DNA from: Microcystis aeruginosa NIES-843
GTDB lineage: Bacteria > Cyanobacteriota > Cyanobacteriia > Cyanobacteriales > Microcystaceae
Length of the DNA stretch: 32,000 nucleotides
Assembly (NCBI RefSeq): GCF_000010625.1
Contig: NC_010296.1
Span: 3,720,001-3,752,000 of the forward strand
Direction: 5' to 3'
The translations under genes were made by a program, and so were the position numbers. The notes below the pieces were generated by a model, which was given only the letters and a program-made list of their open reading frames with translations, made no database searches and was not told the origin of the DNA. Positions 5,265-28,108 of this stretch are shown here, piece after piece; positions within the stretch are counted from its first letter, which is position 1, and the number at the start of each line of letters is the position of its first letter.

Positions 5265-5468
5265 GGTATGCTGAAAAAGCCTGAAATGCCGATAGGAAAA
5301 AGGTAAAATATCCTAAAAGTCCTGCACTTTTTTATTCAGTACATATGTATAGAATCTCGGCGGCAACTCCATCAGAACCAGAATCATTTGAATTACCCTT
5401 TGCAATTTAATTGGCGTATTTACCTGCTTATTTTCCCGACTTCTCTCCTATTTTAGTCTTTTATTAAG

Positions 5469-6938
5469 TCATTTTTTAAGCATTTGGTTATAAACTTGTC
5501 GTGAAAGAATTGGGAAAAACTCTTTATCTTGATAAAACTTTTTTTCCTCTCCAAAGACAACTAAAATATAATGAGCTTTGTTATCAGGACTGACGATAAT
5601 AGCCGCATCATTTCGATTATTAAATGTCCAGCCCATCTTAGCATAAAATTGAGTGTTAACCGGGAGAGATTGACCTAAAAAGTTTTGGATAGGATTAAAA
5701 GGTTTTTCTTTCCACGCTTGAGGATGTAAATCTCGTTTAATTAATTGTTTAATCGCTTGGCTATAAGCTGGCGAAATGGCTTGTTCTTGCTCAATTTCGA
5801 GAAGCAATCTAGCAACGCTATAGGTATTTAAATAATTTCGTCTCGGTGGTGAGCTTTTGCCGTTAAGCTGACGAATTTGTTGGTCTGGTCCGGCTGGATC
5901 CTCGAGTAGATTGGGGATAGGAAAAGTTTTCTGACTAATATTAAGGGGGTAATTAACAGAATCAACAAAATAGGATGCAAAAAAATCATTAAGAGCATAA
6001 CGTTTTCTCCTCCATTCGTTGAGTTTTTCTGGTGTGAGGTCTTTTTGACTCGATTTGGTTTGAGTAATGTTATCAACAATAATACTAGCCGATTCATTAT
6101 CGGAATCTTTAATCATTTTAGAAATAACTTTGAGTTTTTCTGGAGGAATTTGATTCGGCTCAATTCCTTGATAATAATATTGACTATAGAGAACTACTAG
6201 CCAGAAAAGCTTGACAATACTAGCCGGATATCTCAATTCACTATCTTGATAAGCAGCATAAGCGCAACATTCGGATTGATTTAAGTCAACTAAACTGATA
6301 GATAATTTATCTATTGGTAACTTTCTAGATCGAGCTAAACTTACAATATTGTCAACGATTTTTTGCAATTCTTTATCTTGATAAAAAGTAGGCGACTGTT
6401 TAACGTTATAAGTTAGCTGATTAGACTGACTAGGAAGTTGAGGTGTTAAAGGTGTTAGGGACAAATCATTAACGGGCGTTTTTCTGGGCAGATTAGTTGT
6501 ATTTTGCGAGCTTACTATCAGGTTAATTTGATAATCTAAGTTATCTTCTTGCGTCTCTATGACTAGCGAATAGTCGCCTGTTTCCGACAGAATCGTTTTA
6601 TAATCTCCTTGAAGATTTTGGTATTTATTACTTGGAAAAACTAGGCTTATTTTTTGATTAGTTGTTAATTGCAATTGCTGTCCTTGAATGCCCTGAAATT
6701 CATAACATAGGGTTTTATTGTGATCAACTTTACCTCCAATGGACTTAGGAACACCGTTAATTAACAATAATTTAGTTATCCTACAGGATTCGTTTTTGGA
6801 GGAGTTTAAGATGAGATACAGAGCGATTGCAGATGTTACAAAAAAAGAAATTAAGATGGGCAAAAACCTAGACCATTGGATATGGTAAGTCTTCGATTGT
6901 GTTCTGACTTTTATTGACTTTCTTCTTTTTCTTTCCAT
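5469..6938 (-). CDS. Membrane-anchored serine hydrolase, class-A beta-lactamase-like, with an N-terminal PPC-like beta-sandwich domain
   Basis: The 489-aa ORF has an N-terminal TM segment (FLPILISFFVTSAIALYLIL). It carries an SxxK motif (ASIVKLF), an SDN motif (KDSDNES) and a KTG-like motif (AKMGWT) in the class-A order and spacing. An upstream about 70-aa domain is shared with the neighbouring lipoprotein. Confidence 0.75.
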   Translation of the reverse strand: MERKRRKSIKVRTQSKTYHIQWSRFLPILISFFVTSAIALYLILNSSKNESCRITKLLLINGVPKSIGGKVDHNKTLCYEFQGIQGQQLQLTTNQKISLVFPSNKYQNLQGDYKTILSETGDYSLVIETQEDNLDYQINLIVSSQNTTNLPRKTPVNDLSLTPLTPQLPSQSNQLTYNVKQSPTFYQDKELQKIVDNIVSLARSRKLPIDKLSISLVDLNQSECCAYAAYQDSELRYPASIVKLFWLVVLYSQYYYQGIEPNQIPPEKLKVISKMIKDSDNESASIIVDNITQTKSSQKDLTPEKLNEWRRKRYALNDFFASYFVDSVNYPLNISQKTFPIPNLLEDPAGPDQQIRQLNGKSSPPRRNYLNTYSVARLLLEIEQEQAISPAYSQAIKQLIKRDLHPQAWKEKPFNPIQNFLGQSLPVNTQFYAKMGWTFNNRNDAAIIVSPDNKAHYILVVFGEEKKFYQDKEFFPILSRQVYNQMLKK

Positions 6939-6940
6939 GA

Positions 6941-7795
6941 TTAAGTTCCTACCTTATAGTTAATAATTTTCCAATTTTCACTCTCTTTTTTAAACCAATA
7001 GGTAACATTTTTTTGATAAGTCTGGGTTGGGGTTCCACATCCAGCACTTCTGGGACCATGGAGTGTAAGTTGTTCCGTTACATTGACTGTTATTGAAGGT
7101 GACGAACCTGAAGGATCAAAAGAGACTATCCGATTAATATTGGAAAAATCATAAGTATAATAACAGCCTTTAGAGCGCAGCCAACCCACTGTCCCCCCAC
7201 AGATTCCATCATTACATTTTTCTAAGGTATTAGAATAAAGTTCTCCGGTGGCGTATTGCTTCACTAAGCTGTCGTCAAAAGAAGAACCGAAAGCCTGTCT
7301 TTTAACTTCATACCAACGTTTAACAAGTTTTGCTGCTTCATCTTGTGTGAGATCATGGGAAGATGAGGGAGATGGAGAGAGTCTTGGTGTCGGTGTCGGG
7401 GAAGAAGCGAGCGTTCCTAAACTTATATCTATCTTAAAAGTTTTAGAACCTTTGGGGGCAGCAATTTGCAGCAAATACTTTCCGTCTTCTGGCAATTTTG
7501 TTCCTTGTAAAATTTGATTGTCTGGACTATAAAGCCACACACAGATATCATCATCTGTGTTATAGCTAAGGTTTTGTCCTGACTTTCCTGTAAAAGTGTA
7601 TCCGACAGCTTTAGTGGCACTAACCTGATTAGATTTTGTGATAGTTTCAGTTGTTAGGTTAACATTTTCTAGATTTTCTGCAATGAGAATAGCTGTGGGT
7701 TTTTGAGGACATTCTGAAGTTGTTTGAGGTTGATTAAACTGAAAATTACAACTACTGAGAAAAAAGAGAGATGAATAAATAAGGATCTGTTTCAT
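6941..7795 (-). CDS. Lipoprotein with a PPC-like domain, a Pro/Ser linker and an ARC6-IMS/DUF4101-like C-terminal domain
   Basis: I moved the start to ATG 7795. That gives MKQILIYSSLFFLSSC, a lipobox-like LSSC, and removes the overlap with the upstream gene. The C-terminus (AAKLVKRWYEVKRQAFG...ELYSNTL...WLRSKGCYYTYDF...ENWKIINYKV) matches the DUF4101 pattern found in ARC6/Ftn2. Confidence 0.7.
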   Translation of the reverse strand: MKQILIYSSLFFLSSCNFQFNQPQTTSECPQKPTAILIAENLENVNLTTETITKSNQVSATKAVGYTFTGKSGQNLSYNTDDDICVWLYSPDNQILQGTKLPEDGKYLLQIAAPKGSKTFKIDISLGTLASSPTPTPRLSPSPSSSHDLTQDEAAKLVKRWYEVKRQAFGSSFDDSLVKQYATGELYSNTLEKCNDGICGGTVGWLRSKGCYYTYDFSNINRIVSFDPSGSSPSITVNVTEQLTLHGPRSAGCGTPTQTYQKNVTYWFKKESENWKIINYKVGT

Positions 7796-7824
7796 GACTT
7801 TACAAGTGCCGAAAATATTTAGGA

Positions 7825-9195
7825 TTAGTTTTGTTTTTCCTTTAACCATTTTCCCCAATAATAAAAAGGAATAACTCCTCCCAAACCAAGAGCAAGAAAA
7901 ATACAAATAAGCATTAATATTCTGGTTTCTAAGGGAAGTGTACGCCCAAAAAAATCAAGGGTATAAGGTTTAGATTTTGATGCTACTTTCTGAGTAAAAA
8001 CTGTGGCTACATATTCGCCTCCTCGTCGAACGTTGGGTTGGATATAACTGATTTCGTATCGTCCTTGAATCGCATCAAGGAAAATTTCTAATTTCTCGGC
8101 AATTTCATCAGCATCACCAGCAAATTCAGTAACTCCTCCTGTTAACTTCGCAATTTCCGCTAACTGTTTTTGATCTACAAATTCTTTTTCTAGTTGCTCT
8201 CTAGTTGCTTGGGATAATTTTGGGTTATTAATATCTCCACGAACAGCAGGTTTACCTAAGGAATATTTTTTGCCTAATTGTTGTGGGGTTAAGCCATATC
8301 CTAGGGTATGAACAACAATATCTTTATTGTTCTGAAGATTGGCTAAAGTTTTCTGAACTTCTTGATAATTACTATTATTATCAAAGCCATCAGAAAGGAG
8401 AATAATTGAGAGTCGTGGTTGAGGTTTTAAAGGTTTTCCTTCTTTATCTTTAGGATAGAAACGACCTTCTTTATCGTTTTTAAAAAATTTGACGGTTTCT
8501 TTGAGAGCTTGATAGAAGTTGGTCGTTGCACAAGGAGTTTTATCCGCAAGACTACCTAGAAAATTAGTTAGTTTAACATCTTGCACTAAATTAAAATTAT
8601 CGAGAGTTTCTGAAGTAACTTTTGGGTAATAATCACAGGCTCCAGGCTTGTCATTTTTACCTTCTACCCCAAAGGGAACAATAGATAAATAGGTGTTGCC
8701 TTTACGCTCTGAGGCTAATTTAATAAATGTTCCCAGCGCGTTAATTGCTGCATCTAATTTTCGCTTTCCTTTAGCAACCGCTTTGGCATCACATTTTGTG
8801 TTGAGATCCTGAGAACAATTCATACTACCACTAAAGTCGATGAGAACGACAATCCAAGCATCAGGAGGAGTCGTTTCTCGGGGAGACTTCCAGTCAAAAG
8901 GTAGTTGTTTTCCTTGATAAGTTTTGTTGTTTTTTTTATCAAGAACTTTCAGCTGAAAATCGCTTTCAGCTAAACCCATAATCGGTTTACTTTCTTCTCC
9001 TGTCACTTGAATTTGAAGAGTCACTTTATCGTCGATGTCCTCAATATCTGTGATTTCAGGTTTAATTCCCCAAGCTGGGGTAATAAGAGCGGTTAACATA
9101 ATCATTGATAAACTAAGCTTGTGGGTCAAGGAAGCGATTGTAGAAGACGAAACGATAGATTTTGGGTTCATCGGGGTTGTGGTTATCTTTAACAT
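7825..9195 (-). CDS. Exported von Willebrand factor A (vWA) domain protein with a C-terminal membrane anchor
   Basis: It has the MIDAS motif VVLIDFSGSM and later ILLSDGFDNNS. The N-terminal region is signal-like (MIMLTALITPAWG). The C-terminal TM segment is ILMLICIFLALGLGGVIPFYYW. The start is uncertain (9195, 9171 or 9105); the first two overlap the 3' end of the upstream gene. Confidence 0.8.
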   Translation of the reverse strand: MLKITTTPMNPKSIVSSSTIASLTHKLSLSMIMLTALITPAWGIKPEITDIEDIDDKVTLQIQVTGEESKPIMGLAESDFQLKVLDKKNNKTYQGKQLPFDWKSPRETTPPDAWIVVLIDFSGSMNCSQDLNTKCDAKAVAKGKRKLDAAINALGTFIKLASERKGNTYLSIVPFGVEGKNDKPGACDYYPKVTSETLDNFNLVQDVKLTNFLGSLADKTPCATTNFYQALKETVKFFKNDKEGRFYPKDKEGKPLKPQPRLSIILLSDGFDNNSNYQEVQKTLANLQNNKDIVVHTLGYGLTPQQLGKKYSLGKPAVRGDINNPKLSQATREQLEKEFVDQKQLAEIAKLTGGVTEFAGDADEIAEKLEIFLDAIQGRYEISYIQPNVRRGGEYVATVFTQKVASKSKPYTLDFFGRTLPLETRILMLICIFLALGLGGVIPFYYWGKWLKEKQN

Positions 9196-10219
9196 GGAAG
9201 GTGAGTAGGTTGTTGTGTTTAAGGGGAATTTCTTTGGTGCTAGTTAAAGGTATGCCGTTGAGTTCGATAAGGTTGTAAAATGTTGGGTTAGGATCTAAAA
9301 TGGCATCACGGCGGGTAATTTTGATGTCAGCAATATGGGGGGGGAGTCCGGGGAGATAAATATCCGATCCTCTTTCTACACCATCAGAACCTTTAGTTTT
9401 GGGGACAGAACCAATTTTGATGATTCCTTTGGCGGGAAGTTGAATCGACAGTCCCTCTTCGATTTTTTCCGCATCCGATTCACTGACAAATTTGAGCGTT
9501 TTATGGATGTTAGGAAAGACTGAATTAATGGATGTAAATTGAGGATCGATGCTTTCGAGTTCGGGAATGATTTTTCTGTACTCGAATCCTTTACCGGCTC
9601 TCAGTGCCGCCATGTAGCTAGGAGAATTAGTAATTGTAAAGGTTAGGCCGAGCAATAAGCCTAAAATGGCAAATCCGAGGGGATCTTCTGCTTTTCTAAA
9701 CGCTTCTGAAGTGCCTAACCATTGACGAATAAATTCAAAGATTCCCACCGCTACTAAACTGGCAACACCCGCACCGATGATGCTAGTATATAACCGTTGT
9801 CGAAAGCGATCGCGATCCCCCGCTTCCATGCTGTAAAATTGCCAAGTAAGTCCTTCGGCTAATCCAACGGCTGCACCGACAAAAAGCCAACCTAAAAGTC
9901 TGCCTGGAAATTCAGCAACTCCAGATTGAATTAATAGCTGAAAGATTCCACCCGCAGCTAATCCAGCAATCAATCCGATTAAGGTGGCAATTAATAGGGG
10001 AACTAAAGCAATCCGAAAGTTGAGTTTAGGACGGGTGGGATTACTAATAAATATTTCATTCATTACCATCCCAATCCCTAAGGATATAGCGACGCAGGGG
10101 AAAAGAACCACCTCTGGAAACCGAGACAGGATTTTTAAATCAGTCAAGAAAATCTGACCGATATTCCAGCCAATTAAAGCCGAGGTTATTCCTGCTAGTA
10201 TGTAAAGCCAAATTCTCAT
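9113..10219 (-). CDS. Polytopic membrane protein with a C-terminal degenerate FHA-like domain
   Basis: The 368-aa ORF has about 6 hydrophobic, Gly-rich helices in residues 1-200. The C-terminus (KIGSV...GSDIYLPGLPPHIADIKITRRDAIL...ELNGIPLTSTKEIPLKHNNLLTF) follows the FHA layout but lacks the canonical GR and SxxH residues. Confidence 0.65.
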   Translation of the reverse strand: MRIWLYILAGITSALIGWNIGQIFLTDLKILSRFPEVVLFPCVAISLGIGMVMNEIFISNPTRPKLNFRIALVPLLIATLIGLIAGLAAGGIFQLLIQSGVAEFPGRLLGWLFVGAAVGLAEGLTWQFYSMEAGDRDRFRQRLYTSIIGAGVASLVAVGIFEFIRQWLGTSEAFRKAEDPLGFAILGLLLGLTFTITNSPSYMAALRAGKGFEYRKIIPELESIDPQFTSINSVFPNIHKTLKFVSESDAEKIEEGLSIQLPAKGIIKIGSVPKTKGSDGVERGSDIYLPGLPPHIADIKITRRDAILDPNPTFYNLIELNGIPLTSTKEIPLKHNNLLTFHVKDNHNPDEPKIYRFVFYNRFLDPQA

Positions 10220-10230
10220 AGGTTTAAAAA

Positions 10231-12540
10231 TTATCCTCTTGGGGGAGTTGACGAATCGATAATTGGTTTTACTTTACCGCAAATTGGTGTATTACTTAAT
10301 GTTTGACCTAGTTGAGCAGCTACATCACACTTCAAAAGGTTATAGGTATTCTTTCCATAGTTAATCACTCCATCAACATCAATCTTAATAGATGGCTCCT
10401 TTTTAAGTCTAGATTTAAGACTTTCTTGGTATTGTAAAATAGCTTTAACCCAAGCTTCTTTATCTTCTACTTCAGTCATAGGACTAAGGTAAATTTCAAA
10501 TTCATTATTGGGATCAAGAACCTTAATTACACTAGATGAAGATGAAGATGAAGTATCAAGACCAAAAGCTTGGTCCAATTCTTTTACTAAAGTTTCTAAA
10601 CTCAATTTGGTCTTTTGTGATTTATCAAATTCCGAGACTGCCTTTTCAATTTTTTGGTCTCTTGTCGGAGATGGGGTAGCCACTTTAACTTGAGAAAACC
10701 CTAGCTTTTTACAATTGTCAGCAGTTGCTTGAGTTGCTTGCAGTTGCATATTTTGAAGCAGATTACATTTTAGAGCTTGATAAGTTTTTCCATCTTTATC
10801 AATAATGCCATCGAAATCATCAGAATTAGATGGTGTAACTTTATATAATTGATAATACAATATAGACAAAATCCACTTTTCTTTATCTTTATTATCTTCT
10901 GTTTTATTTAGAGTCTTAAGCTCAAAAGAGTTATTGGGATCGAGAATTTTTGAAATAGCTTCATCAATCTCATTCTTGTTATGTTTAGAAGCATCTGCTC
11001 TAGTAGTTTGCTTCAAATCTTGTTGAATTTGTAGTAATGACCCTTTAGTCTTTGGAAAGCTTTTGATCGCTTTTTTAATAATCGGCGATTCTGAATTGTT
11101 TGATCCTCCGGGTAAACCGGGTACAGATAAATTAGCTAAATTCAATAATCTTTGAAGGAAAAATCCTCCTAAAGTGAATATAAGCAAAAAATAAATAATA
11201 GCAATAAAACAGCCAGATGCTCCACCTCTAAACACGGAAGATAGGAGAAATATTGCTGTTTCTTTTATTTCTCTACCTGTCCATTGTTGCTTAGGTATTT
11301 CTCTTTTAACTGGAAGTCCAAAAATAGAAGTTTCATTTTTTAATCCCAGACTTATATAAGTTTTATATATTTTTCCCCAAAGACCGGTTTCATCTGATAA
11401 AAATTTGGCGGCTACCTCTGTTAGTTTTGGTCGATCAATCACATTAAGAATGAGGATATTAATGCCTTTGGTAATTTTATCAGATATAACTGAATCTTGA
11501 TTGAGAATAACCCTTAAAATTTCCTGTTGAAAACTCTGAGATATTGGATAATAATCCTTCTCTTTTTTCATTATCCAAGCGACAAAATCTGGCAGCTTTT
11601 CAGGGCAAATGATGGCTTGTAGCGTCAAGAGGCGTACTTTATATTTATCATAAATTCCCTGTTGATAAGCATATTCAGAGCCTTCATTTTCAAAAATATC
11701 CCCCCAAAAGGTTGTATAATCCTGTTGAATTTTAGGATTGTTCAAAGCCTTTTCTATAGTTACTAAATTGTTTTGAAAGTTTCCTGTACGGCAGGAATTT
11801 CTGACGGCAATTTTAACAGAAGTTTCTTTTAATGGTGTAGTAAGCTGAGGAATACTCGCTATTTGTGATTTTATTCTGCCCTCTGCTTTTTGATTCGCAG
11901 GATGAATGACTAAAAAGCGATTTGGTTTCTCTAAATCTTCTACATTCCAGGCCCAAGAAATCAATTCATTATATCTTGCTGGGTCAGTTTTAGAGGCAAT
12001 TTTATGAATGATTAAAGCAGGATATGGTGTCTGCTTCTGAGGAATAATTATCGGTGTTTTTCCTTCCCAAATCCCATCCAACTCATGCGGAATATAGTCA
12101 TTAATTTGAGTTTCAGTATCGTCATATTCTGTAGGATAACCGACTTGTTTATGATCGGAGGGGTTAAAAGTTGGCATTCCATTTTTCATGTACCAAGATA
12201 CAAGATCAGGCAGCTTACCCCTTTCCTGACACAAGAAATAGCGATAGAGAGATACACACCGTCCCCGTTCATCTATCCCCCGTGTGACGACGGCAATGAC
12301 TGACCAAGCCTCTCCATGATATTCCACTTCCCGTCCAATAATGGCGGGATTTTGGCTAGATGCGCCTTCAGAAACGGCAAATTCCCGATTTTTGATCGCT
12401 AACTGTACAGGTCTAGGAATTTTAGCAAGGGTTGAGTTCATGTACTCTCCCGAAAAACCCCGCGACCTCCACTCACCATTATCGTCAGTGCCATCGACTA
12501 AAATACCCGTGCTAAATTCATGAATGTGAATAATAGTCAT
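10231..12540 (-). CDS. Large single-pass membrane protein, paralog B (769 aa), unknown family
   Basis: It has a soluble N-domain of about 440 aa (MTIIHIHEFSTGILVDG...). Its TM segment is CFIAIIYFLLIFTLGGFFLQ. The C-terminal region consists of two internally repeated domains of about 120-130 aa. It is a tandem paralog of 12621-15221. Confidence 0.8.
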   Translation of the reverse strand: MTIIHIHEFSTGILVDGTDDNGEWRSRGFSGEYMNSTLAKIPRPVQLAIKNREFAVSEGASSQNPAIIGREVEYHGEAWSVIAVVTRGIDERGRCVSLYRYFLCQERGKLPDLVSWYMKNGMPTFNPSDHKQVGYPTEYDDTETQINDYIPHELDGIWEGKTPIIIPQKQTPYPALIIHKIASKTDPARYNELISWAWNVEDLEKPNRFLVIHPANQKAEGRIKSQIASIPQLTTPLKETSVKIAVRNSCRTGNFQNNLVTIEKALNNPKIQQDYTTFWGDIFENEGSEYAYQQGIYDKYKVRLLTLQAIICPEKLPDFVAWIMKKEKDYYPISQSFQQEILRVILNQDSVISDKITKGINILILNVIDRPKLTEVAAKFLSDETGLWGKIYKTYISLGLKNETSIFGLPVKREIPKQQWTGREIKETAIFLLSSVFRGGASGCFIAIIYFLLIFTLGGFFLQRLLNLANLSVPGLPGGSNNSESPIIKKAIKSFPKTKGSLLQIQQDLKQTTRADASKHNKNEIDEAISKILDPNNSFELKTLNKTEDNKDKEKWILSILYYQLYKVTPSNSDDFDGIIDKDGKTYQALKCNLLQNMQLQATQATADNCKKLGFSQVKVATPSPTRDQKIEKAVSEFDKSQKTKLSLETLVKELDQAFGLDTSSSSSSSVIKVLDPNNEFEIYLSPMTEVEDKEAWVKAILQYQESLKSRLKKEPSIKIDVDGVINYGKNTYNLLKCDVAAQLGQTLSNTPICGKVKPIIDSSTPPRG

Positions 12541-12594
12541 TATTTTAATCCTTATCTAATTCTTTGTGATGTTGAGCATAGGTTTAAAAATTAT
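12541..12594. repeat. Tandem-duplication junction relic
   Basis: 12541-12575 copies 15222-15256 with one mismatch; that source segment is the 4-nt spacer plus the last 31 nt of the third GTPase gene. 12577-12594 (cataggtttaaaaattat) is identical to 10217-10234, which is the start codon of the FHA-membrane gene plus its spacer. Confidence 0.75.
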
Positions 12595-12620
12595 TATTCT
12601 CCTGATGGATTAGTTGATGA

Positions 12621-15221
12621 CTAGGATGGATCAATTGGTTTTACTTTATCGCAAATTTCTGATGTCTCCTTACTTAATGTTTTACCCAGTTGAGCAGCTA
12701 CATCACACTTCAAAAGGTTATAGGTATTCTTTCCATAGTTAATCACTCCATCAACATCAATCTTAATAGATTGCTCCTTTTTAAGTCTAGATTTAAGACT
12801 TTCTTGGTATTGTAAAATAGCTTTAACCCAAGCTTCTTTATCTGCTGGTTCAGTCATACGACTAAGGGAAATCCCAAATTCATTATTGGGATCAAGAACA
12901 TTAATTACATTATATGAAGATGAAACAGAAAAAGCCTCATCTAATTCTTTTACTAAAGTTTGTAAACTATATTTTGTCTTTTCTGGTTTATCAAATTCTG
13001 GGACTGCCTTTCTGATTGCTTCCTCTTCTGTTGTAGTTGGAGTTGGAGTTGGAGTTGGAGCGGGAGTTGAAGATGAAGCGGGAGTTTTAGCCACTTTAAC
13101 TTGAGAAAACCCTAGCTTTTTACAATTGTCAGCAGTTGCTTGAGTTGCTTGCAGTTGCATATTTTGAAGCAGATTACATTTGAGAGCTTGATAAGTTTTT
13201 CCATCTTTATCAATAATGCCATCGAAATCATCAGAATTAGATGGTGTAACTTTATATAATTGATAAGACAATATAGATAAAATCCACTTTTCTTTATCTT
13301 TATTATCTTCTGGTTTATTTAGAGTCTTAAGCTCAAAAGAGTTATTGGAATCGAGAATTTTTGAAATAGCTTCATCAATCTCATTCTTGTTAGGTTTAGA
13401 AGCATCTGCTCTAGTAGTTTGCTTCAAATCTTGTTGAATTTGTAGTAATGACCCTTTAGTCTTTGGAAAGCTTTTGATCGCTTTTTTAATAATCGGCGAT
13501 TCTGAATTGTTTGATCCTCCGGGTAAACCGGGTACAGATAAATTAGCTAAATTCAATAATCTTTGAAGGAAAAATCCTCCTAAAGTGAATATAAGCAAAA
13601 AATAAATAATAGCAATAAAACAGCCAGATGCTCCACCTCCTCTAAACACGGAAGATAGGAGAAATATTGCTGTTTCTTTTATTTCTCTAAATACTGGTTC
13701 ATACCAAGGTATATCTCTTTTAACTTTAATATCAAAATTATAAACTTCATCCCCCTTCAATTTATGGCGTTTATATACGTCACTAGGAATCTTTTCCTGG
13801 GCGAGATGATAAAAGAAAACGGTTAAACTATATCCTTGATCTGATGGAACTTTTTCTTCTAGTTTATCAAATAGGTGAGCAAGATGGATGTATTTTTGAG
13901 TTTTTTCACTGGGATAAAAAAGAGAATCCCAAACTTTACTTAAGTCATCTTTAATTTCTTGCCAAGGTGCATCATCTAGTTTTCTTTCTTTTAAACTTTT
14001 TTTCAGTTTTTTACTGGTATCATCTTTGTATATTCTGCCCCAGAGTCCTTTTTTATCTGATAAGAGTTTAGCTGTAGCATCTATCAATTCTGGCTGCTCA
14101 ATGACATTAAGAATAAGTCTATCAATACCTTGGGTGATTTTACTAAATATAGTAGGTGCAAGGGGGTAATCACCTTGTGGGTTGATTGCGTTTACAATCT
14201 CCCCTTGAAAACTCTGAGATATTGGATAAGAATCCTTATCTTTGTTCATTATCCAAGCGACAAAATCTGGCAGCTTTTCAGGGCAAATGATGGCTTGTAG
14301 CGTCAAAAGACGTACATTAGATTCATTATAAATTCCCTGTTGATAAGCATCTTTGGAGCCTTGTCCTTCAAATATGGAATTCCAAAAGGTTTTATAATCC
14401 TGTTGAATTTTAGGATTGTTCAAAGCATCTTCGATAGGGGCTAAATTTTCTTGAAAGTTTCCTGTCCGGCAGGAATTCTTAATAGCAGTTCTGATTAGGG
14501 GTTCTTCGGGTATAGCCGGGGGAAGTTGAGGAATACTGTTTATTGTGGCTCTTATGGTCTCCTCTGCTTTTTTGCTGGCGGGATGAATGACTAAAAAGCG
14601 ATTTGGTTTCTCTAGAGCCTCCACATTACAGGCCCAAGAAATCAATTCATTATATGTTGCTGGGTCAGTTTTAAAGGCAATTTTATGAATGATTAAAGCA
14701 GGATATGGTGTCTGCTTCTGAGTAATAATTATCGGTGTTTTTCCTTCCCAAATCTCATCCAACTCAGGCGGAATATAGTCATTAATTTGAGTCCCAGTAT
14801 CGTCATATTCTGTAAACTGACCGACTTGTTTATAATCAGAGGGGTTAAAAGTTGGCTTTCCATTTCTCGTATACCAACATAAAAGATCAGGCAGCTTACC
14901 CCTTCCCTGACACAAGAAATAGCGATAGAGAGATGCACCCCGTCCCCGTTCATCTATCCCCCGTGTGACGACGGCAATGACTGACCAAGCCTCTCCATCA
15001 TATTCCACTTCCCGTCCAATAATGGCGGGATTTTGGCTAGATGCGCCTTCAGAAACGGCAAATTCCCGATTTGTGATCGCTAACTGTACAGGTGTAGGAA
15101 TTTTAGCAAGGGTTTTGTTCATGTACTCTCCCGAAAAACCCCGCGACTTCCACTCACCAGCACCGCCAGTGGCATCGACTAAAATACCCGTGCTAAATTC
15201 ATGAATGTGAATAATAGTCAT
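12621..15221 (-). CDS. Large single-pass membrane protein, paralog A (866 aa), unknown family
   Basis: It has the same architecture as paralog B. It carries an insertion of about 100 aa before the TM helix and a longer Thr/Pro linker between the two C-terminal repeats. The start ATG 15221 is 4 nt downstream of the preceding GTPase gene. Confidence 0.8.
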   Translation of the reverse strand: MTIIHIHEFSTGILVDATGGAGEWKSRGFSGEYMNKTLAKIPTPVQLAITNREFAVSEGASSQNPAIIGREVEYDGEAWSVIAVVTRGIDERGRGASLYRYFLCQGRGKLPDLLCWYTRNGKPTFNPSDYKQVGQFTEYDDTGTQINDYIPPELDEIWEGKTPIIITQKQTPYPALIIHKIAFKTDPATYNELISWACNVEALEKPNRFLVIHPASKKAEETIRATINSIPQLPPAIPEEPLIRTAIKNSCRTGNFQENLAPIEDALNNPKIQQDYKTFWNSIFEGQGSKDAYQQGIYNESNVRLLTLQAIICPEKLPDFVAWIMNKDKDSYPISQSFQGEIVNAINPQGDYPLAPTIFSKITQGIDRLILNVIEQPELIDATAKLLSDKKGLWGRIYKDDTSKKLKKSLKERKLDDAPWQEIKDDLSKVWDSLFYPSEKTQKYIHLAHLFDKLEEKVPSDQGYSLTVFFYHLAQEKIPSDVYKRHKLKGDEVYNFDIKVKRDIPWYEPVFREIKETAIFLLSSVFRGGGASGCFIAIIYFLLIFTLGGFFLQRLLNLANLSVPGLPGGSNNSESPIIKKAIKSFPKTKGSLLQIQQDLKQTTRADASKPNKNEIDEAISKILDSNNSFELKTLNKPEDNKDKEKWILSILSYQLYKVTPSNSDDFDGIIDKDGKTYQALKCNLLQNMQLQATQATADNCKKLGFSQVKVAKTPASSSTPAPTPTPTPTTTEEEAIRKAVPEFDKPEKTKYSLQTLVKELDEAFSVSSSYNVINVLDPNNEFGISLSRMTEPADKEAWVKAILQYQESLKSRLKKEQSIKIDVDGVINYGKNTYNLLKCDVAAQLGKTLSKETSEICDKVKPIDPS

Positions 15222-15225
15222 TGTT

Positions 15226-16140
15226 TTAATCCTTATCTAATTCTTTGTGATGTTGACCGGTACAAAGCCAGTAAATCGGGGAAACTAAACCAAAGGGTCG
15301 CCACCGCTTCGGATCGCGGATAATAGAAGTTGTTCCTTGGCGATCGCGTTGTTTTTCGATCGAGTTGGGTTCGGGATAATTGGTTCCCAACGTACCAAAG
15401 GCAGAAGTGGCAAAATAGTCCACTTCACCTCCTCCCCTATCTACCCAGTTTTCTAATTTATTTTGCATCAGAGGAAAGCGTCTTTGTGTCAATTTTCTCG
15501 GTTCATGACGACTCACCCACAGTTGACTCAGTTCGCACTTACTAACCGCAAAAGCAACGCGGCGCTGTTTGGGATTAATATCCACCCTGTCTAAAGCCGC
15601 TAAAAATTTTTCTAGTCCAATAGCATAGTCTTTATCTTTGCGGTGAGAGGTTCCATCCACTAACAATAAAAGACCTGTAGCCACCACACAGTCTTCGAGA
15701 TAGTCAACTAAGCGCGGATCGCCGGTTTTGTTAATGAGATCCCGAAGAAACTCGCCGGAATAATCTTTACAGTTAACATTGAGACGTATTGCGCTAGAAG
15801 ATAGGCCTCTTTGCAGATTTTTCAAAGAAAATTGTTCTTTGAGAACAATACTTAATCCATAATCTTTGACTTCATCAACGGTGGCTTCTAGGGGAGTTGG
15901 TTCTAATTCTAGTCCCTGTTCCAAGATGTTCTGTGCCATGTTCATCAGTTGTGCGCTGGCTTCTTGGTTCCCCACTGGAGTCACCGATTGAACTGGACTA
16001 TCGGCCTTAGCATTTGGCCAATAGGCGAGGGAAGCCATATAGGCGGTTTTACCAGCATTGCGATCGCCAATAACCCGTATTTCGGCATTGGCATCTTTTA
16101 ATTCAGGAGCTTTTGGTTTTAACCAGTCAAACGCTTTCAT
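15226..16140 (-). CDS. Small P-loop GTPase-like protein, paralog 3
   Basis: I moved the start to ATG 16140, which is preceded by AAGGAG and a 6-nt spacer. It overlaps the upstream stop by 14 nt. Motifs are G1 GDRNAGKT, G3 DYSGE, G4-like VSKCE and G5-like ATSAFG. The C-terminal motif IRDPKRWRPFGLVSPIYWL is shared with paralog 2. Confidence 0.75.
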   Translation of the reverse strand: MKAFDWLKPKAPELKDANAEIRVIGDRNAGKTAYMASLAYWPNAKADSPVQSVTPVGNQEASAQLMNMAQNILEQGLELEPTPLEATVDEVKDYGLSIVLKEQFSLKNLQRGLSSSAIRLNVNCKDYSGEFLRDLINKTGDPRLVDYLEDCVVATGLLLLVDGTSHRKDKDYAIGLEKFLAALDRVDINPKQRRVAFAVSKCELSQLWVSRHEPRKLTQRRFPLMQNKLENWVDRGGGEVDYFATSAFGTLGTNYPEPNSIEKQRDRQGTTSIIRDPKRWRPFGLVSPIYWLCTGQHHKELDKD

Positions 16141-16972
16141 TTTTGGCTCCTTGATTTGGTTTTTTACTGAGCCAATAGAGAGGTTCAATTAGATTATAAG
16201 GTTGCCATGAGTTTGGTTGTCTAATCACCGAAGCCGGTTCTTCTCCTTTCATCCGATCTTCTCGGTTAGGACGGGGATTATCTCTGCCTAAAACGCCAAA
16301 GGTAGAAAGGGCAAAAAAACGCAGATTTTGGGGAATAACTTTTTCTCGCAAGGTTTTAGTAGTTTCTCGTAAATGGACAGCGAACAAATCAATTTCTGGG
16401 TCAAGCCTACCGGGCCAAATTTCTCCTCTTTCACATTTACTCATAACTATTGCTAACTTCAAATTCTGAGAACGACCCCGCTCATCCATTAATTTAAGGA
16501 ATTGTTTCATGATTCTGTTATAAAAGTTATCAGTTCCTGGTTCCCATCCTGTTAGCATAATTAGACAGCCGATGACATCGGTAAAACATTCATTAATAAA
16601 ATCTTCATGGATAGGCTTTCTTGCACTGGGACTGGCAATTGCCTCAAAGACTTCTCCGGGATAATCTCTAGCGGTTAATTGAAAAGTCTCCGTGGAACTA
16701 TACCAATAGGGTTTGGCTGTGATACCAAAGGAATAAAAGGGTAAGTCATCTACTGACTCAATCTCTTGTCCGATGACGGTTCTATCTAGATCGGCCGCTT
16801 GTTTGAGAATATTTTCAGCTTTTTCAGCAAGTATTCTTGTGGCAGGATTTTGGGGGTTGACAGTAAATAGTTTTTTGCCTTGTTTGTGTTCTTTAAAGTA
16901 GGATAAAGCCGCTAAATAGGTGGTTTTTCCTGCTGCTGTCGGTCCAATTACAACAATATTTCCACTGGTCAT
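16127..16972 (-). CDS. Small P-loop GTPase-like protein, paralog 2
   Basis: Motifs are G1 GPTAAGKT, G3 DYPGE, G4-like MSKCE and G5-like ALSTFG. The C-terminal motif is IRQPNSWQPYNLIEPLYWL. An AGGAG lies 5 nt upstream of ATG 16972. Confidence 0.8.
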   Translation of the reverse strand: MTSGNIVVIGPTAAGKTTYLAALSYFKEHKQGKKLFTVNPQNPATRILAEKAENILKQAADLDRTVIGQEIESVDDLPFYSFGITAKPYWYSSTETFQLTARDYPGEVFEAIASPSARKPIHEDFINECFTDVIGCLIMLTGWEPGTDNFYNRIMKQFLKLMDERGRSQNLKLAIVMSKCERGEIWPGRLDPEIDLFAVHLRETTKTLREKVIPQNLRFFALSTFGVLGRDNPRPNREDRMKGEEPASVIRQPNSWQPYNLIEPLYWLSKKPNQGAKNESV

Positions 16973-16991
16973 TTTTACTCCTATTTTAACT

Positions 16992-17765
16992 TTATTTTGC
17001 GAGATGACTGCCCAAATAAATCCAAGGGAGTTCTAATAATTTTCGATTATATATGCTCGTAATGAAACATCTAATTGTTAACCCTTGAATACTACGGTTA
17101 AGTTGATTGATTTGAGGGTGAATCGGTCGAAAATAACGCTGAAAAACATAGTTATCTCTCTCTTGCCATGTCATAGGTTGGAAATCAGGATTAAAAGCGA
17201 GTTTTCTGGCTTCTTCTTCGAGATCGACTCGGAGTAAATCGGCTTTATTTAAACAGAGGAGAAGATGTCGAATTTTCGGACAATCTTGCTGGAAAAATTC
17301 AAGCCAACGGTCAAAACGATTACACCATTGTTGTCTGGTGATAAAGTCATCTTTGTTGACTTGACCGGTCGGTTTAATGATGTCCCGATAGGGCGGTAAA
17401 ATCAACATAATTCCTTCAGCTTTTCTGATCGTTTCGAGAAATCTTTGCCACTCATCAGGTTGATTTTTTTGCCAGTATTGTCGCCAGATTTCACCGGGGG
17501 TGTCCAACCAATCCAAGGCAATCATTTTCTCCCCTGTGGGAAGGGTGACATTAACTTCTATGTACTGCTCATTAATTCCTTCGGGGGCGATACTACCAGT
17601 TGCTTTTGGAGAGCCAAGTTCTAGATCTAAAAAGAGTCCTCTAAGAAACTGATAATCGGGATAAGTAACTTTGACATAATTTCCCTTGGGGTTAGCTAAT
17701 TCCAAGACTAGGTGAGTTTTACCTGTTTCGCGATCGCCAATATAAATAACTCCCAAGCACTCCAC
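16992..17765 (-). CDS. Small P-loop GTPase, paralog 1, with a canonical NKxD motif
   Basis: Motifs are G1 GDRETGKT, G3 DTPGE and G4 LNKAD. The track start GTG 17765 overlaps an AGGAGG (17770-17765). TTG 17756 lies 8 nt after that Shine-Dalgarno sequence and is the more likely start. Confidence 0.8.
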   Translation of the reverse strand: MECLGVIYIGDRETGKTHLVLELANPKGNYVKVTYPDYQFLRGLFLDLELGSPKATGSIAPEGINEQYIEVNVTLPTGEKMIALDWLDTPGEIWRQYWQKNQPDEWQRFLETIRKAEGIMLILPPYRDIIKPTGQVNKDDFITRQQWCNRFDRWLEFFQQDCPKIRHLLLCLNKADLLRVDLEEEARKLAFNPDFQPMTWQERDNYVFQRYFRPIHPQINQLNRSIQGLTIRCFITSIYNRKLLELPWIYLGSHLAK

Positions 17766-18800: not shown

Positions 18801-18818
18801 AAATAGGAGACAAAAACC

Positions 18819-24055: not shown

Positions 24056-26173
24056 TTAAACGTCAGCCTCTGTTAAAGCTTGAGCGAGCATTCTGGCTAG
24101 ATGGGATTTATCTTGTTGATTGTAGAGAGTAATGGCTTGACGATAGTAGGATAAGAGTTCGCGGGCATATTGGATTTGTCCATCGGCAGTTTTTAGATTA
24201 AGTAATACCCAGCCTAAATTGTGGTAGGCTTCAGGGTAGTCAGGTTTGAGTTGAATCGCCTGCTCCAGATGAGTTTTCGCTTGCTTCCATTGTCCCAATT
24301 GAGCGAGTAATGTTCCTAGTCGATAGGCAATAAAATGCTCCTCACCATTTTTCTGTAGGTAAGCTTGATAAATTTGAAGGGCCTCCGAGGGATTGTTGAG
24401 ATGCTCATGGCAAATAGCCGTATTGATAAGCACCCAGGGGGCTGCGTTGGGGTGACGACTAGCTTGTTGAAAGCAAGGAAGAGCCTGACTCCATAACCCT
24501 TGTTGAGCTTGTTTCCAACCTTTGAAACCCCAAGCAAAGGGATGGTCTTGAATTTGAGTCAGACAGTCTTGAATGCGCCGGTCTAAATCTTGGCTTTGTT
24601 GGCTAGTGGTGGCTTTGTCAAGAGCGGCAAGCAGGTAGGGATAAACCCAATATTGAATTTGTTGATTCTTTTGGGAGGGGTTTTGTTTGGATTTAGTAAT
24701 TGCTTTACTAGCAGCACCAATAGTGGCTTTAAATTGATTTTGATTGAAGGTAATCCAAGCTTGAATTCCGAGAGCAAAGAGATTGTTACTATCAAGTTTT
24801 AGGGCTGTGTTGATAGCGGATTCTGCTTCTTGCCAATGACCAATTTTACCGAATGACCAGGCTAAATTCACTTGTATCCAAAGAGCTTGAGGTGAAAGTT
24901 TAGCCCCTTTTTGTAGTTGTTGTACGGCGGATTCCCAGTTATTTTGATGGCAATATACCAAGCCTAAAACTCCGTACCCTCTACCATCATTAGGGTTTAG
25001 TTGAATTGCTTTTTGGGCAGCAATTTCAGCTTGAGTATCATTAAGATGGATTTGCAATAACGCTTGTTCAACAGCAGCTGCACCATTATTGGGTTCGTTG
25101 CTTAAACATTTCTCGTAACTTTGAACTGCTTCGACAAGTTTTCCTTGTTTAACTAACTCTCTTGCTTTTTTTTGTAAAGGAGAAACAAATTGACCTTTGA
25201 GCGCATCAATCAGTTCGTCAGCAGTTTGGAAACGATCCTCAACATTAATTCTCATTCCAGTTAGGATAACAGTTTCCATTAAATTAGAAATATCTGGATT
25301 GAGTTGTCGGGGTGGAATGAGAGGATCTGATGAACGTTGCTGCAATAATGCACTAGCTCTATCCGGTGCTTCAATTGGTAATTGTCCGGTTAAAAGTTCA
25401 TAGATTGAAGCACAAAAAGCATAAAAATCCGTGGCAGGAAAACGTTTACTCCTTTGACTATATTGTTCATAAGGAGCATAACCCGGGGTTAAGGTTCTGG
25501 TCATGTCTCCTGTTTGACCGGCGATAAATTCTCTCGCTGCACCAAAGTCAATTAAAATCGCTTTATCTTGAGGATCAATTAAAATATTGTCAGGTTTAAT
25601 ATCCCGGTGTAAAAAATTATTATTGTGGACGGTTTTTAAGGCATCAGCAATTTGCATAAAATAGCGTTTAACTCGCTCTTCAGTTAGCTTTTTTTCTTGG
25701 GTCAGGATTTTAAAAAGAGATTTTCCCGCAATAAATTCCATGACAATATAAACTGTATCGTTTTCGTCAAACCAATCATAAATTTTAGGGATATTGGCAT
25801 GATGACATTTTTGTTGATGGCTGGCTTCTAGCTTAAATTTACTGGTTTGTTGTCGTTTTATTTGAGGAGAAATAGAGGCAGGCCAAATAACTTTATTTCC
25901 TTGTCTAGCGGATTTTTCTGGCCAAAGTTCTTTGATAGCCACAGGAGCATTATTCGCTCGATAAATTCCTTTATAGGTAATGCCAAATCCCCCTTCACCT
26001 AAAACTTGTTCGATCTGATATTGTCCCTGTTTGAGTAAAGTTCCGATGCTGAGATGATGGAGTGATATGGTAGTTTTGTTAGGGGATACAGGGGTGAGAT
26101 TAAAACCACAACTAATACATTGTTGTGTTCCATCAGGGTTATCAGTTAGACAGCTTGGACAGAGGATAGACAT
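24056..26173 (-). CDS. Ser/Thr protein kinase with an N-terminal zinc ribbon and C-terminal TPR repeats
   Basis: CPSC...CISCG forms a zinc ribbon. Kinase motifs are GEGGFGITYKG, VAIKEL, HRDIKPDNILI, DFGAAR and GYAPYEQ. The C-terminal half has repeated TPR-like A..Y...L...P motifs. Confidence 0.9.
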   Translation of the reverse strand: MSILCPSCLTDNPDGTQQCISCGFNLTPVSPNKTTISLHHLSIGTLLKQGQYQIEQVLGEGGFGITYKGIYRANNAPVAIKELWPEKSARQGNKVIWPASISPQIKRQQTSKFKLEASHQQKCHHANIPKIYDWFDENDTVYIVMEFIAGKSLFKILTQEKKLTEERVKRYFMQIADALKTVHNNNFLHRDIKPDNILIDPQDKAILIDFGAAREFIAGQTGDMTRTLTPGYAPYEQYSQRSKRFPATDFYAFCASIYELLTGQLPIEAPDRASALLQQRSSDPLIPPRQLNPDISNLMETVILTGMRINVEDRFQTADELIDALKGQFVSPLQKKARELVKQGKLVEAVQSYEKCLSNEPNNGAAAVEQALLQIHLNDTQAEIAAQKAIQLNPNDGRGYGVLGLVYCHQNNWESAVQQLQKGAKLSPQALWIQVNLAWSFGKIGHWQEAESAINTALKLDSNNLFALGIQAWITFNQNQFKATIGAASKAITKSKQNPSQKNQQIQYWVYPYLLAALDKATTSQQSQDLDRRIQDCLTQIQDHPFAWGFKGWKQAQQGLWSQALPCFQQASRHPNAAPWVLINTAICHEHLNNPSEALQIYQAYLQKNGEEHFIAYRLGTLLAQLGQWKQAKTHLEQAIQLKPDYPEAYHNLGWVLLNLKTADGQIQYARELLSYYRQAITLYNQQDKSHLARMLAQALTEADV

Positions 26174-26284: not shown

Positions 26285-28108
26285 TTAAGTGCCAGAAGTC
26301 ATAAAACATTGCATAGCTAAAAGCGTTGCATTATCGGTTGCTCCTTGATTAATAACTCTTTGAATGGTTTGATCAACTGCCATTTGTAAAGATTCAAATT
26401 GACTAAAAATTTCTGCCAGTTCCTGAGTCGGTACTAAATCCCAAACTCCGTCAGAACAGAGAAGTAAAATATCTTCATTTTCTAAAGTCATTGATAAATT
26501 GCCAGTGGTGCGAGTTAAATTCTGCACATAGCCTTCACTTAAATGTTTTTTTGAACCGATAGATTTGAGTAAGACATTTCGATCTGGATGGGTTAAACTT
26601 TCCTCTTCTGTTATTTCACCGTTAGCCACTAACATAGCTACCAGTGAATGATCTTCACTTAGTTGTTTAATTTTTCCTTGTCGTATTAAATAAATTCGAC
26701 TATCTCCCACATGGGCTATCATTAAGCTATCATTGATCGCTAATACAACACTTAAAGTTGTTCCGCCATTACGAACAGTATCAGCAATAGATATGTTGGC
26801 TTTTTGAAATAAATTAAGTAGCCATTCATTACGCTGTTCTCCTGTTTTAAATTCTGGAGGAAGGGAGTCTTGTAATATAGTTTTAACAGCAATTTGACTA
26901 GCTACTTCTCCTTGGGACATTCCTCCCATACCGTCAGCTACAACGCCTAAAATAAGGGTTTCTGAATTACTGAGGTGTTGTTGTCTTACACCGTAGTTAT
27001 CTTCATTTTGTAGGCGTTCTGTTGAAAGTCCAACGGTTGAATAACTGGCAATATTCCACTGCACTTTCAGACTTCGTAGTGAATGGCGAGTTTCGATTAA
27101 TAAGCTGAGAAATTGAGCCAGGGGAAAGCGTTCTTCTGGAAGAGAGGACAAGGCAATTTTCAGCAGTTGATAAAGACGCGGAATCGGAGCAATTTCTAAA
27201 CTAATAATCTGGTCAGATTGAGGTAATTTTTTATGGGTAGTTTGATACAATAAAGCGGCGATAGTATAACTGCTCATTGATTCATTGATAGAGCGACTTG
27301 CCGCAAGTTCAGGAGCGCAATAATCTCCGATAACACCAGAAGTCAGGCTTTCTTCAATTGAGTAAGCGCAGGTTAAGTCAAAGATTTTGAGGGGTTTGTC
27401 TATTTCTATAAACTGGGGAAGCAGGTTGATTAAATACCAGTTTTGTTTAGCTATATAAGAAAATAACTGACAAACTTGAATCACTAACGTTAGTGCTTCT
27501 TCTTGAGAATGTTCTGCTTTTAGCCAAGCTTCTAAAGTCAAGTTTTCTTGAGGAAATCGCGTTAACAGAAGAAGTTTTTCTGGTTTCGTCTCGTTTTCGA
27601 CTGCTGTTTCTGGGTAGTATTCTTCTTCTAAATAGTCTGTTTCTGCGGACTGATTTTCTCCAGAATCATCATCTTTTGTTGAAGTAATATTGACAAATTC
27701 AGAATCTTCCGAGACTATTTGTTCAGTGGCAATATCTTCATTTTGTTTTTCATCTACCTCCTGGGATTTTTCCTTGATTGATAGGGGATTAATAATAGCT
27801 GAATCTACTTGAATATCAGCGATAAGTGGAGCGATTAAGCTGTAGTTTTGAAGAATTTTTCTCAGTTGCAGTTCCCGATCGAGACTACTATTAAGAGAGC
27901 CGACACGCAAAAGTCCCAATTGAGAAGATGTTTCGCCCTTTTCCCCATCGAGATCGGCAATGGGTTGAAACTTGACTTTGAAGTAATAAACATCTGCGGT
28001 TAATAACCCTAGATAGGCGATAATTTCTATCTGATAATCTGCCATAGAAAAAGATTCTTTTTCTTGAATAAGCAGGGGGGAGAAGTTTTCTGTCGATGGT
28101 GAAGTCAT
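26285..28108 (-). CDS. Fusion of a pseudokinase-like N-domain to a PP2C-family Ser/Thr phosphatase
   Basis: PP2C motifs are GVVADGMGGMSQGEVAS, AHVGDSRIY, LLLCSDGVWD and GATDNATLLAM. The N-terminal half follows the kinase layout: NWYLINLLPQFIEI replaces HRDxKxxN, KIFDLTCAY replaces DFG, and YCAPELA is retained. The catalytic residues are missing. Confidence 0.85.
   Translation of the reverse strand: MTSPSTENFSPLLIQEKESFSMADYQIEIIAYLGLLTADVYYFKVKFQPIADLDGEKGETSSQLGLLRVGSLNSSLDRELQLRKILQNYSLIAPLIADIQVDSAIINPLSIKEKSQEVDEKQNEDIATEQIVSEDSEFVNITSTKDDDSGENQSAETDYLEEEYYPETAVENETKPEKLLLLTRFPQENLTLEAWLKAEHSQEEALTLVIQVCQLFSYIAKQNWYLINLLPQFIEIDKPLKIFDLTCAYSIEESLTSGVIGDYCAPELAASRSINESMSSYTIAALLYQTTHKKLPQSDQIISLEIAPIPRLYQLLKIALSSLPEERFPLAQFLSLLIETRHSLRSLKVQWNIASYSTVGLSTERLQNEDNYGVRQQHLSNSETLILGVVADGMGGMSQGEVASQIAVKTILQDSLPPEFKTGEQRNEWLLNLFQKANISIADTVRNGGTTLSVVLAINDSLMIAHVGDSRIYLIRQGKIKQLSEDHSLVAMLVANGEITEEESLTHPDRNVLLKSIGSKKHLSEGYVQNLTRTTGNLSMTLENEDILLLCSDGVWDLVPTQELAEIFSQFESLQMAVDQTIQRVINQGATDNATLLAMQCFMTSGT

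Follow-up and report, generated by a model that had tools for sequence, protein, structure and literature searches.

Gene content, order and distribution of the locus

The window analysed here is a stretch of 32,000 nucleotides of the Microcystis aeruginosa NIES-843 genome. Nine genes on its minus strand, between 5469 and 17765, encode three small GTPases (G1, G2 and G3), a large membrane protein in two copies (L1 and L2), a polytopic protein with a degenerate FHA domain (TMFHA), an exported vWA protein, a lipoprotein with an ARC6-like IMS domain and a serine hydrolase. All nine proteins have exact matches in the NIES-843 contig (5,842,795 bp), where they are BAG03887–BAG03895, MAE_40650 to MAE_40730. 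A preliminary description of the sequence had listed nine head-to-tail open reading frames (ORFs) with spacings of about −83 to +80 nt; all were found where it had placed them, with computed gaps of +19, −14, +4, +80, +11, −83, +29 and +2 nt. Every domain assignment that it had made by eye for the nine proteins was verified, and the predicted cellular locations are backed by transmembrane (TM) segments, by signal sequences and a lipobox, and by periplasmic cysteines that do not vary among orthologs. The spacing and the conserved gene order make co-transcription of the nine genes likely. A scan for consensus promoters and terminators gave counts like those of shuffled sequence.

The unit of nine genes first proposed is too small. 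In other cyanobacteria the operon continues with a second vWA gene (vWA2), a gene for a protein of about 130 amino acids (aa), a third vWA gene (vWA3), a zinc-ribbon-FHA gene (ZnR-FHA), a PP2C phosphatase gene and usually a Ser/Thr kinase gene. This kinase/FHA/vWA module is also in the NIES-843 window – upstream of the GTPase half, on the same strand (24056–32000) – and the two modules are separated by 18093–23721, a stretch of apparently unrelated genes. By their contiguity in other genomes and their joint carriage on a plasmid described below, both modules belong to one system (Table 1). The first gene of the second module is vWA2, whose reading frame is unbroken to the window end. TMFHA has a homolog in the C-terminal half of vWA2 (97.6% by hhalign, E 4e-12), so the full set has three GTPases, three vWA proteins and three FHA-type domains.

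The distribution was scanned in one genome per GTDB species, and the counts of features below are loci with the feature out of loci with enough flank. The scan found 120 relatives, nearly all of them cyanobacterial, with several copies in some genomes. They include Trichodesmium erythraeum IMS101, Arthrospira, Calothrix, Tolypothrix, Dolichospermum, Spirulina and Crocosphaera. All three GTPase genes lie upstream of L on the same strand in 58 of 62 loci, and TMFHA and the vWA gene lie downstream of it in 47 of 53. The association of the GTPases with the large protein, first put forward from a single locus, is real, since the two co-occur across genomes. In Planktothrix, Microcoleus and Xenococcaceae, where the L homologs are 31–42% identical, the order is three GTPases, L, a polytopic protein of about 360 aa, vWA, a gene for about 255 aa, ARC6-IMS, and Beta-lactamase2 or VanY. 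Overall, the gene order is kept at 27–65% protein identity across the Chroococcales, Pleurocapsales, Oscillatoriales and Nostocales, in dozens of genera. The proposal of a conserved GTPase-linked system that spans several compartments is supported.

The set is also found on plasmids. Homologs of G3 are present on 8 cyanobacterial plasmids. In Anabaena (Trichormus) variabilis ATCC 29413 the entire set of about 16 genes forms one block on plasmid B (NC_007411.1; circular, 35,762 bp). The block spans the start of the record and adjoins genes for ParA/ParB, DnaB, an integrase and XisF; the set is the main cargo of the plasmid. A divergent minimal variant is found on Nostoc sp. ATCC 53789 plasmid pNsp_h (NZ_CP046711.1, 9274–22033). 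It consists of three GTPases (G3 ca. 38% identical), L, TMFHA, vWA, a small protein and a second vWA protein, and has no IMS lipoprotein and no hydrolase. The 8 plasmids, the several copies per genome and the patchy distribution give the system an accessory, mobile character.

Several genes border the system in other genomes. The pNsp_h variant adjoins a divergently oriented dynamin-family gene. STAND NTPases are encoded beside the system in Planktothrix (locus L001, 1–1258, NB-ARC/TPR) and in Microcoleus (locus L002, 2757–4478, HTH_VMAP-M9 with NB-ARC/NACHT), which hints that these two loci lie in a conflict-island context.

Table 1. Genes of both modules in the NIES-843 window, with positions counted from the first letter of the window. 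The last column gives occurrence among the scanned loci. AF2, AlphaFold2; pLDDT, predicted local distance difference test; MIDAS, metal ion-dependent adhesion site; TPR, tetratricopeptide repeat.
Protein	Locus tag	Length (aa)	Position	Strand	Features	Loci
G1	MAE_40730	257	16992..17765	-	divergent, DO-GTPase1-like; GDRETGKT, DTPGE, NKAD; Pfam DO-GTPase1 7.8e-6
G2	MAE_40720	281	16127..16972	-	DO-GTPase-like, paralog of G3; GPTAAGKT, DYPGE, SKCE
G3	MAE_40710	304	15226..16140	-	DO-GTPase2-type; GDRNAGKT, DYSGE, SKCE
L1	MAE_40700	866	12621..15221	-	single-pass membrane protein; AF2 model, pLDDT 81; no Pfam family
L2	MAE_40690	769	10231..12540	-	tandem paralog of L1; about 75 residues of the helical domain missing
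TMFHA	MAE_40680	368	9113..10219	-	six TM helices and C-terminal degenerate FHA domain; AF2 pLDDT 83
Exported vWA protein	MAE_40670	426–456 (start-dependent)	7825..9195	-	signal sequence, MIDAS, C-terminal TM anchor
IMS lipoprotein	MAE_40660	284	6941..7795	-	lipobox LSSC; C-terminal ARC6-like IMS domain	30/45
Beta-lactamase2-type serine hydrolase	MAE_40650	489	5469..6938	-	N-terminal TM anchor; Beta-lactamase2 2e-9	13/45
vWA2			30643..32000, beyond window end	-	vWA, TM region, FHA-like C-terminal half	orthologs in 35
Small protein		134	30231..30635	-	partner of vWA3	43
vWA3		460	28825..30207	-	no TM helix; MIDAS DTSGS	29/45
ZnR-FHA		187	28173..28736	-	Pro-rich; Pfam FHA 8.8e-12	orthologs in 28
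PP2C phosphatase		607	26285..28108	-	N-terminal region kinase-like
Ser/Thr kinase		705	24056..26173	-	Pkinase 2.2e-44; TPR repeats; ortholog after PP2C elsewhere

The three GTPases and the large membrane protein

All three GTPases have a P-loop of the form GxxxxGKT and a Walker B motif DxxGE, followed by a G4-like motif that is NKAD in G1 and, instead of NKxD, SKCE in G2 and G3. These motifs are invariant in alignments of 28–29 orthologs, with the Walker B glutamate at E92, E107 and E130, respectively. The paralogs G2 and G3 are 28% identical. Against the Pfam DO-GTPase1 and DO-GTPase2 models the window GTPases score 22–26 bits, just under the 27-bit cut-off. Among their orthologs, a DO-GTPase2 match is found in 29 of 29 G3 proteins (best 2.7e-11) and a DO-GTPase1 match in 22 of 28 G1 proteins (best 1.9e-6), which makes G1 the weakest DO-GTPase member. 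The GTPases of the divergent plasmid variant pass both cut-offs (40.8 and 36.5 bits), and most G3 orthologs carry a precomputed PF19993 or PF19975 annotation, PF19993 in most cases. A glutamate in Walker B is a signature of the DO-GTPase family (Kaur, Burroughs, Iyer and Aravind 2020, PMC7159879). The Pfam matches and the DxxGE motif indicate that G1–G3 are members of this family, and the link to that study made in the preliminary description is correct for the GTPases. The P-loop begins at residue 10–25 and there are no cysteine pairs, and so none of the three has an N-terminal zinc ribbon. Neither the GTPase sequences nor those of L have a significant sequence relative in the PDB.

The AlphaFold2 model of L1, made from a 30-sequence alignment (mean pLDDT 81), consists of a cytosolic alpha/beta N-domain (1–230), a helical domain (240–475), a TM helix, and two helical, cysteine-containing periplasmic domains (576–702 and 732–857). 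There is one strong TM helix in each copy, at 534–552 in L1 and 444–462 in L2. A large cytosolic N-domain, a single TM helix and a duplicated outer domain with cysteines had been read from the two proteins by eye; this architecture is confirmed, and the cysteines are paired. Invariant polar residues are densely packed in the first 102 positions of L (E8, S10, T11, E58, S61, R70, R94 and R100). The family has 543 representatives in a library clustered at 50% identity, and Pfam and NCBIfam scans of L1 and L2 returned no family. A search for genuine GAP1 sequences that started from a GTPase above the Pfam cut-off gave cyanobacterial orthologs for all of the 120 matches listed. L occupies the place in the gene order where DO-GTPase systems have GAP1, and seems to be a previously unrecognised family.

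Two candidate relationships of L were set aside as firm assignments. Its best fold match in the PDB, for the N-domain, is TagF of type VI secretion (E 0.09); this match and those to armadillo-like folds are non-significant and are leads only. A PG_binding_1 domain, which had been considered for the outer domain, is marginal in the family – there is a weak match in 2 of 30 members, and one Planktothrix C-terminus scores 21.6 bits against a cut-off of 23 – and is missing from the Microcystis L domains.

L1 and L2 are 75–80% identical proteins. The duplication of the giant protein noted in the preliminary description holds for Microcystis, which has two copies, but it is a tandem duplication specific to Microcystis, and there is mostly one copy elsewhere. 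Tandem L paralogs arose independently in at least 8 lineages, with three copies in Anabaenopsis, and at least 10 others have two or three repeats of the helical domain within one chain. At the DNA level L1 and L2 form a mosaic (55–100% identity in 150-nt windows), a sign that gene conversion came after the tandem duplication. L2 is preceded by 30 nt that repeat the 3’ end of G3 exactly (…QHHKELDKD stop; 12541–12580 compared with 15222–15261), so the duplication that formed L2 took in the end of G3. Between Microcystis strains L is 70–86% identical and the GTPases 87–99%. By its tandem paralogs, its internal repeats and its lower identity between strains, L is the expandable component beside a constant GTPase switch.

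Envelope proteins, phosphorylation genes and neighbouring genes

The C-terminal beta-sandwich of TMFHA matches Rad53 FHA1 and other FHA domains with a Foldseek probability of 1.0 and a target TM-score of up to 0.58, and its profile match to the FHA domain of Ki-67 is weak (E 0.12). TMFHA is 50–63% identical across orders and keeps the NG motif of FHA domains (N321 is invariant). The degenerate FHA domain assigned to this protein by eye is correct: the model and Foldseek give the FHA fold, and the motifs for phosphothreonine (pThr) are lost.

The exported vWA protein has a weak Pfam VWA match and a TIGR03436 match of 2.7e-12. Its MIDAS is intact (DFSGS, D120xS122xS124), and there are two invariant cysteines. 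The last 83 nt of the TMFHA gene (9113–9195) are also part of this ORF. Overlaps of 56–59 nt between the two are likewise called in Planktothrix, Microcoleus and Xenococcaceae, and in other Microcystis annotations the protein starts 8 or 30 codons later.

The lipoprotein matches ARC6-like_IMS at 77 bits (E 1.7e-21), which bears out the DUF4101/ARC6-IMS domain seen by eye, and has no further Pfam domain. Its small N-terminal domain is common to a gene of other loci, here called X255.

In the hydrolase the residues S240/K243, S279/N281 and K434/G436 (motifs SxxK, SxN and KxG) are kept in at least 95% of 18 orthologs. It scores 17.6 bits against the NCBIfam model bla_class_A, for which the cut-off is 200, and passes the broad Pfam model Beta-lactamase2 alone (37.5 bits). 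In loci without the hydrolase, the slot between vWA and vWA3 is taken by VanY in six cases and by NlpC/P60 in one. This alternation of three unrelated peptidase families is the strongest hint at a biochemical target, which may be the stem peptides of peptidoglycan, since a beta-lactamase-like hydrolase, VanY and NlpC/P60 share one slot.

In the second module, vWA3 is among the best-conserved proteins of the system, with 65–69% identity to its best orthologs in other cyanobacterial orders. Matches of ZnR-FHA to DZR and Zn_Ribbon_1 are weak and sub-threshold (E 0.002–0.004). The N-terminus of the Ser/Thr kinase is rich in cysteine and, read by eye, resembles a zinc ribbon.

The region between the two modules has genes on both strands. 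Five genes are on the plus strand (18093–21673), and encode a sigma-70 region-2-like protein of 235 aa, a DUF1822 protein of 304 aa, a 288-aa protein without a family, a DUF6932 protein of 168 aa and a 158-aa protein. To judge by their appearance, these five genes were inserted into a locus that was ancestrally contiguous, and so divided it. On the minus strand, after the kinase gene (21679–23721), are genes for a 117-aa protein and a 549-aa protein; the latter has TM segments and matches Trypsin_2 weakly (E 2.5e-4, below the cut-off). This pair is kept in another Microcystis genome (locus L005), and has matches of only 21–25% in two other loci. The two proteins could be lineage-specific additions to the system.

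A 6.9-kb contig of Logan SRR34066046 has an ORF at its end (5261–6871; P0078, 536 aa) in which the N-terminal kinase domain of the system's Ser/Thr kinase is joined to L from about residue 85 onward. It is either a real deletion/fusion in some Microcystis strain or an assembly chimera. The same contig has a gene for a 326-aa protein between PP2C and the kinase, which NIES-843 does not have. At the left end of the window an adjacent pair of DUF4335 and DUF3038 genes (419–1701, minus strand), from cyanobacterial families of unknown function, is unrelated to the GTPase system.

Possible roles and comparison with known systems

We favour, with moderate confidence, a reading in which the nine genes are the GTPase/envelope half of a mobile, almost wholly cyanobacterial, transmembrane signalling system of conflict type, centred on DO-GTPases and comprising about 15–16 genes. 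A role in conflict or stress is favoured because the distribution of the system is accessory and mobile. In this scheme the GTPases would together form a hetero-oligomeric switch seated on the cytosolic portion of L, which would stand in the place of GAP1. L would act with the vWA protein, the lipoprotein and the peptidase to sense or reshape the condition of the peptidoglycan or of a ligand in the envelope, the signal would pass the membrane through L and TMFHA, and the kinase, PP2C and FHA proteins would set a phosphorylation threshold. The output may be local wall remodelling, lysis or membrane permeabilisation on a breach of the envelope, such as one caused by phage; of all the steps, this one has the least support.

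Only tentatively can one go further, to a cyanobacteria-specific immune or programmed-lysis system in which a three-GTPase switch on L senses peptidoglycan integrity through periplasmic vWA, NTF2-like and peptidase partners and triggers wall autolysis or membrane permeabilisation past a kinase/phosphatase threshold. Were this the case, there would be consequences for phage resistance, for the collapse of blooms and for colony behaviour in Microcystis, Planktothrix, Trichodesmium and Arthrospira, and A. variabilis plasmid B would offer the first tractable entry to DO-GTPase systems.

Several observations weigh against the conflict-type reading. The FHA domain of TMFHA is degenerate because the pThr-binding motifs GR and SxxH are replaced by GS (G270-S271) and PPH. 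The Pfam models GAP1-N1, -N2, -M and -C match none of 30 L family members at E≤1, and the L of the divergent plasmid variant has no GAP1 match at E≤0.5; any homology would be remote and below the sensitivity of HMMER. Given no Pfam GAP1 and no NCBIfam match, GAP1 homology of L was rejected at the level of hidden Markov models (HMMs), and the GAP1-like N-terminus suggested in the preliminary description is not supported. A Foldseek search with L found no match at E≤0.001 in either the PDB or BFVD. The variation in L across Microcystis strains is evenly spread, and a hypervariable sensor region, looked for among these strains, was not detected. There is no obvious toxic effector in the set, PADLOC assigns the nine proteins no defence family (weak P-loop matches to G2 alone, best E 3.4e-4), and tblastn with G3 found homologs on no phage record. 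No functional literature was found on the genes MAE_406xx-407xx or Ava_B. The biological role of the system is inferred from sequence, and that of L as a platform for the GTPases from gene position alone.

Some of these points fit the first alternative – a non-defensive regulator of the envelope or of morphogenesis, in which the GTPases and Ser/Thr phosphorylation would adjust how peptidoglycan is remodelled, how cells divide or how colonies and filaments are built. Models for it are the PknB/PstP/FhaA control of wall synthesis in actinobacteria and the part of ARC6/Ftn2 in division. The set has an ARC6-like IMS domain, peptidoglycan peptidases that alternate in one slot, and a kinase/PP2C/FHA module; ZnR-FHA probably has the architecture of FraH of Anabaena; and a recognised toxin or nuclease effector and a PADLOC defence family are both missing. 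We nevertheless think this regulator, though plausible by its domain content, rather unlikely. The distribution is patchy, with none of the usual model strains among the best 80 loci, a plasmid of 35.8 kb has the set as its main cargo, and some genomes have several copies, all of which argues for an accessory rather than a core morphogenetic function.

A specialised secretion or translocation apparatus, or a gating device, modelled on threonine phosphorylation in the type VI secretion system (T6SS) or on type IV coupling proteins, is improbable. In 8 of 62 loci the gene immediately upstream of G1 encodes a VirD4/TraG-like coupling ATPase (T4SS-DNA_transf, TraG-D_C). It lies, for example, at 5755–7323 in the Planktothrix locus and 5285–6817 in the Microcoleus locus (L001 and L002 above), and is ca. 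70% identical between orders. The match between the fold of the L N-domain and TagF, and the parallel of the vWA, kinase, PP2C and FHA set with the T6SS pathway (PMC5995506), also point in this direction. The coupling ATPase is, however, missing from most loci, including the window, plasmid B and Microcystis in general, there are no channel, secretin, sheath or pilus genes at the locus or on plasmid B, and the TagF match is far from significance. Chance juxtaposition of functionally unrelated genes is highly implausible and is excluded by neighbourhood statistics that contradict it: the order is kept at low protein identity over four cyanobacterial orders, gene ends overlap or nearly abut, and the whole set travels together on plasmids.

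The system is widespread in cyanobacteria of ecological importance, in bloom formers such as Microcystis, Planktothrix and Dolichospermum as well as in Trichodesmium and Arthrospira, with a clear list of conserved parts. One of these, L, is a large family without a Pfam model or a detectable structural relative. The peptidase slot yields a biochemical hypothesis, in which cleavage of stem peptides would be coupled to the GTPase switch. A. variabilis ATCC 29413, a widely used laboratory strain, is genetically tractable, and loss-of-function and transfer work should be feasible in it, with the 35.8-kb plasmid that carries the whole system as a natural vehicle for knock-out or transfer.

Individual proteins and the second module have relatives in characterised pathways. 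Like class A beta-lactamases and proteins of the penicillin-binding fold, the hydrolase has the motifs SxxK, SxN and KxG, and a VanY DD-carboxypeptidase takes the same operon position; unlike class A enzymes it is membrane-anchored, has an extra N-terminal domain and scores far under the class A cut-off. The lipoprotein shares its C-terminal IMS (DUF4101) domain with ARC6/Ftn2 (ZipN), and differs in being a 284-aa lipoprotein without the DnaJ-like/FtsZ-binding region. The T6SS threonine-phosphorylation pathway has PpkA (with a vWA domain), PppA, Fha1 and TagF (PMC5995506), and a vWA/Ser-Thr kinase/FHA/PP2C module is found in the Deinococcus DRA0331-0334 operon (bioRxiv 10.64898/2026.01.23.701218). 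As in the cyanobacterial module, kinase, PP2C, FHA and vWA proteins are encoded together in both, and the FHA proteins there are phospho-dependent adaptors. In the cyanobacterial set, in contrast, a GTPase triad and membrane proteins are coupled to the module, degeneracy affects two of the three FHA-like domains, and the window ORFs include no T6SS families.

The closest comparison is with the GTPase-centric DO-GTPase/GAP1 conflict systems, which are computational predictions (PMC7159879); in the searchable literature this computational paper is the only one on DO-GTPase systems, and no experimental work on them was found. By their published logic, an NTPase switch that stays constant is combined with a third, conserved protein just downstream and with domains that face the membrane or the wall, and the third theme of GAP1-N2 type has TM components, vWA proteins, a ZnR-kinase and PP2C (PMC7159879). 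The cyanobacterial set has GTPases with the Walker-B glutamate, directly downstream of them a large protein that crosses the membrane by a TM helix and has a domain outside the cytoplasm, further TM components, vWA proteins, a ZnR-kinase with PP2C, wall-facing domains including an NTF2-like one, and a constant switch beside an expandable third component. The claim that the system is undescribed stands in part – no characterised pathway matches it, but a predicted class with TM, vWA, kinase and PP2C components was already published.

The departures from that class are also several. By the published definition there are one or two paralogous GTPases, with N-terminal zinc ribbons in ca. 60%, a GAP1 protein (GAP1-N1 or GAP1-N2 with GAP1-M and GAP1-C) is encoded downstream of the GTPase, and the GAP1 types have a GASH protein (N1) or an FNIII-repeat protein (N2) (PMC7159879). 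Here there are three GTPases, all without zinc ribbons, L matches no GAP1 model, and none of the proteins of both modules has a Pfam match to GASH or FNIII repeats. The six-TM degenerate-FHA protein, its vWA-fused paralog and the peptidoglycan peptidase slot are features of the cyanobacterial set, and its host phylum, the cyanobacteria, is not listed for the published systems in PMC7159879. On account of these differences – in the GTPases, GAP1, the FNIII or GASH proteins, the TM-FHA and peptidase components, and the phylum – the set is kept outside the GAP1 families, and would be a variant of the predicted GTPase-centric class.

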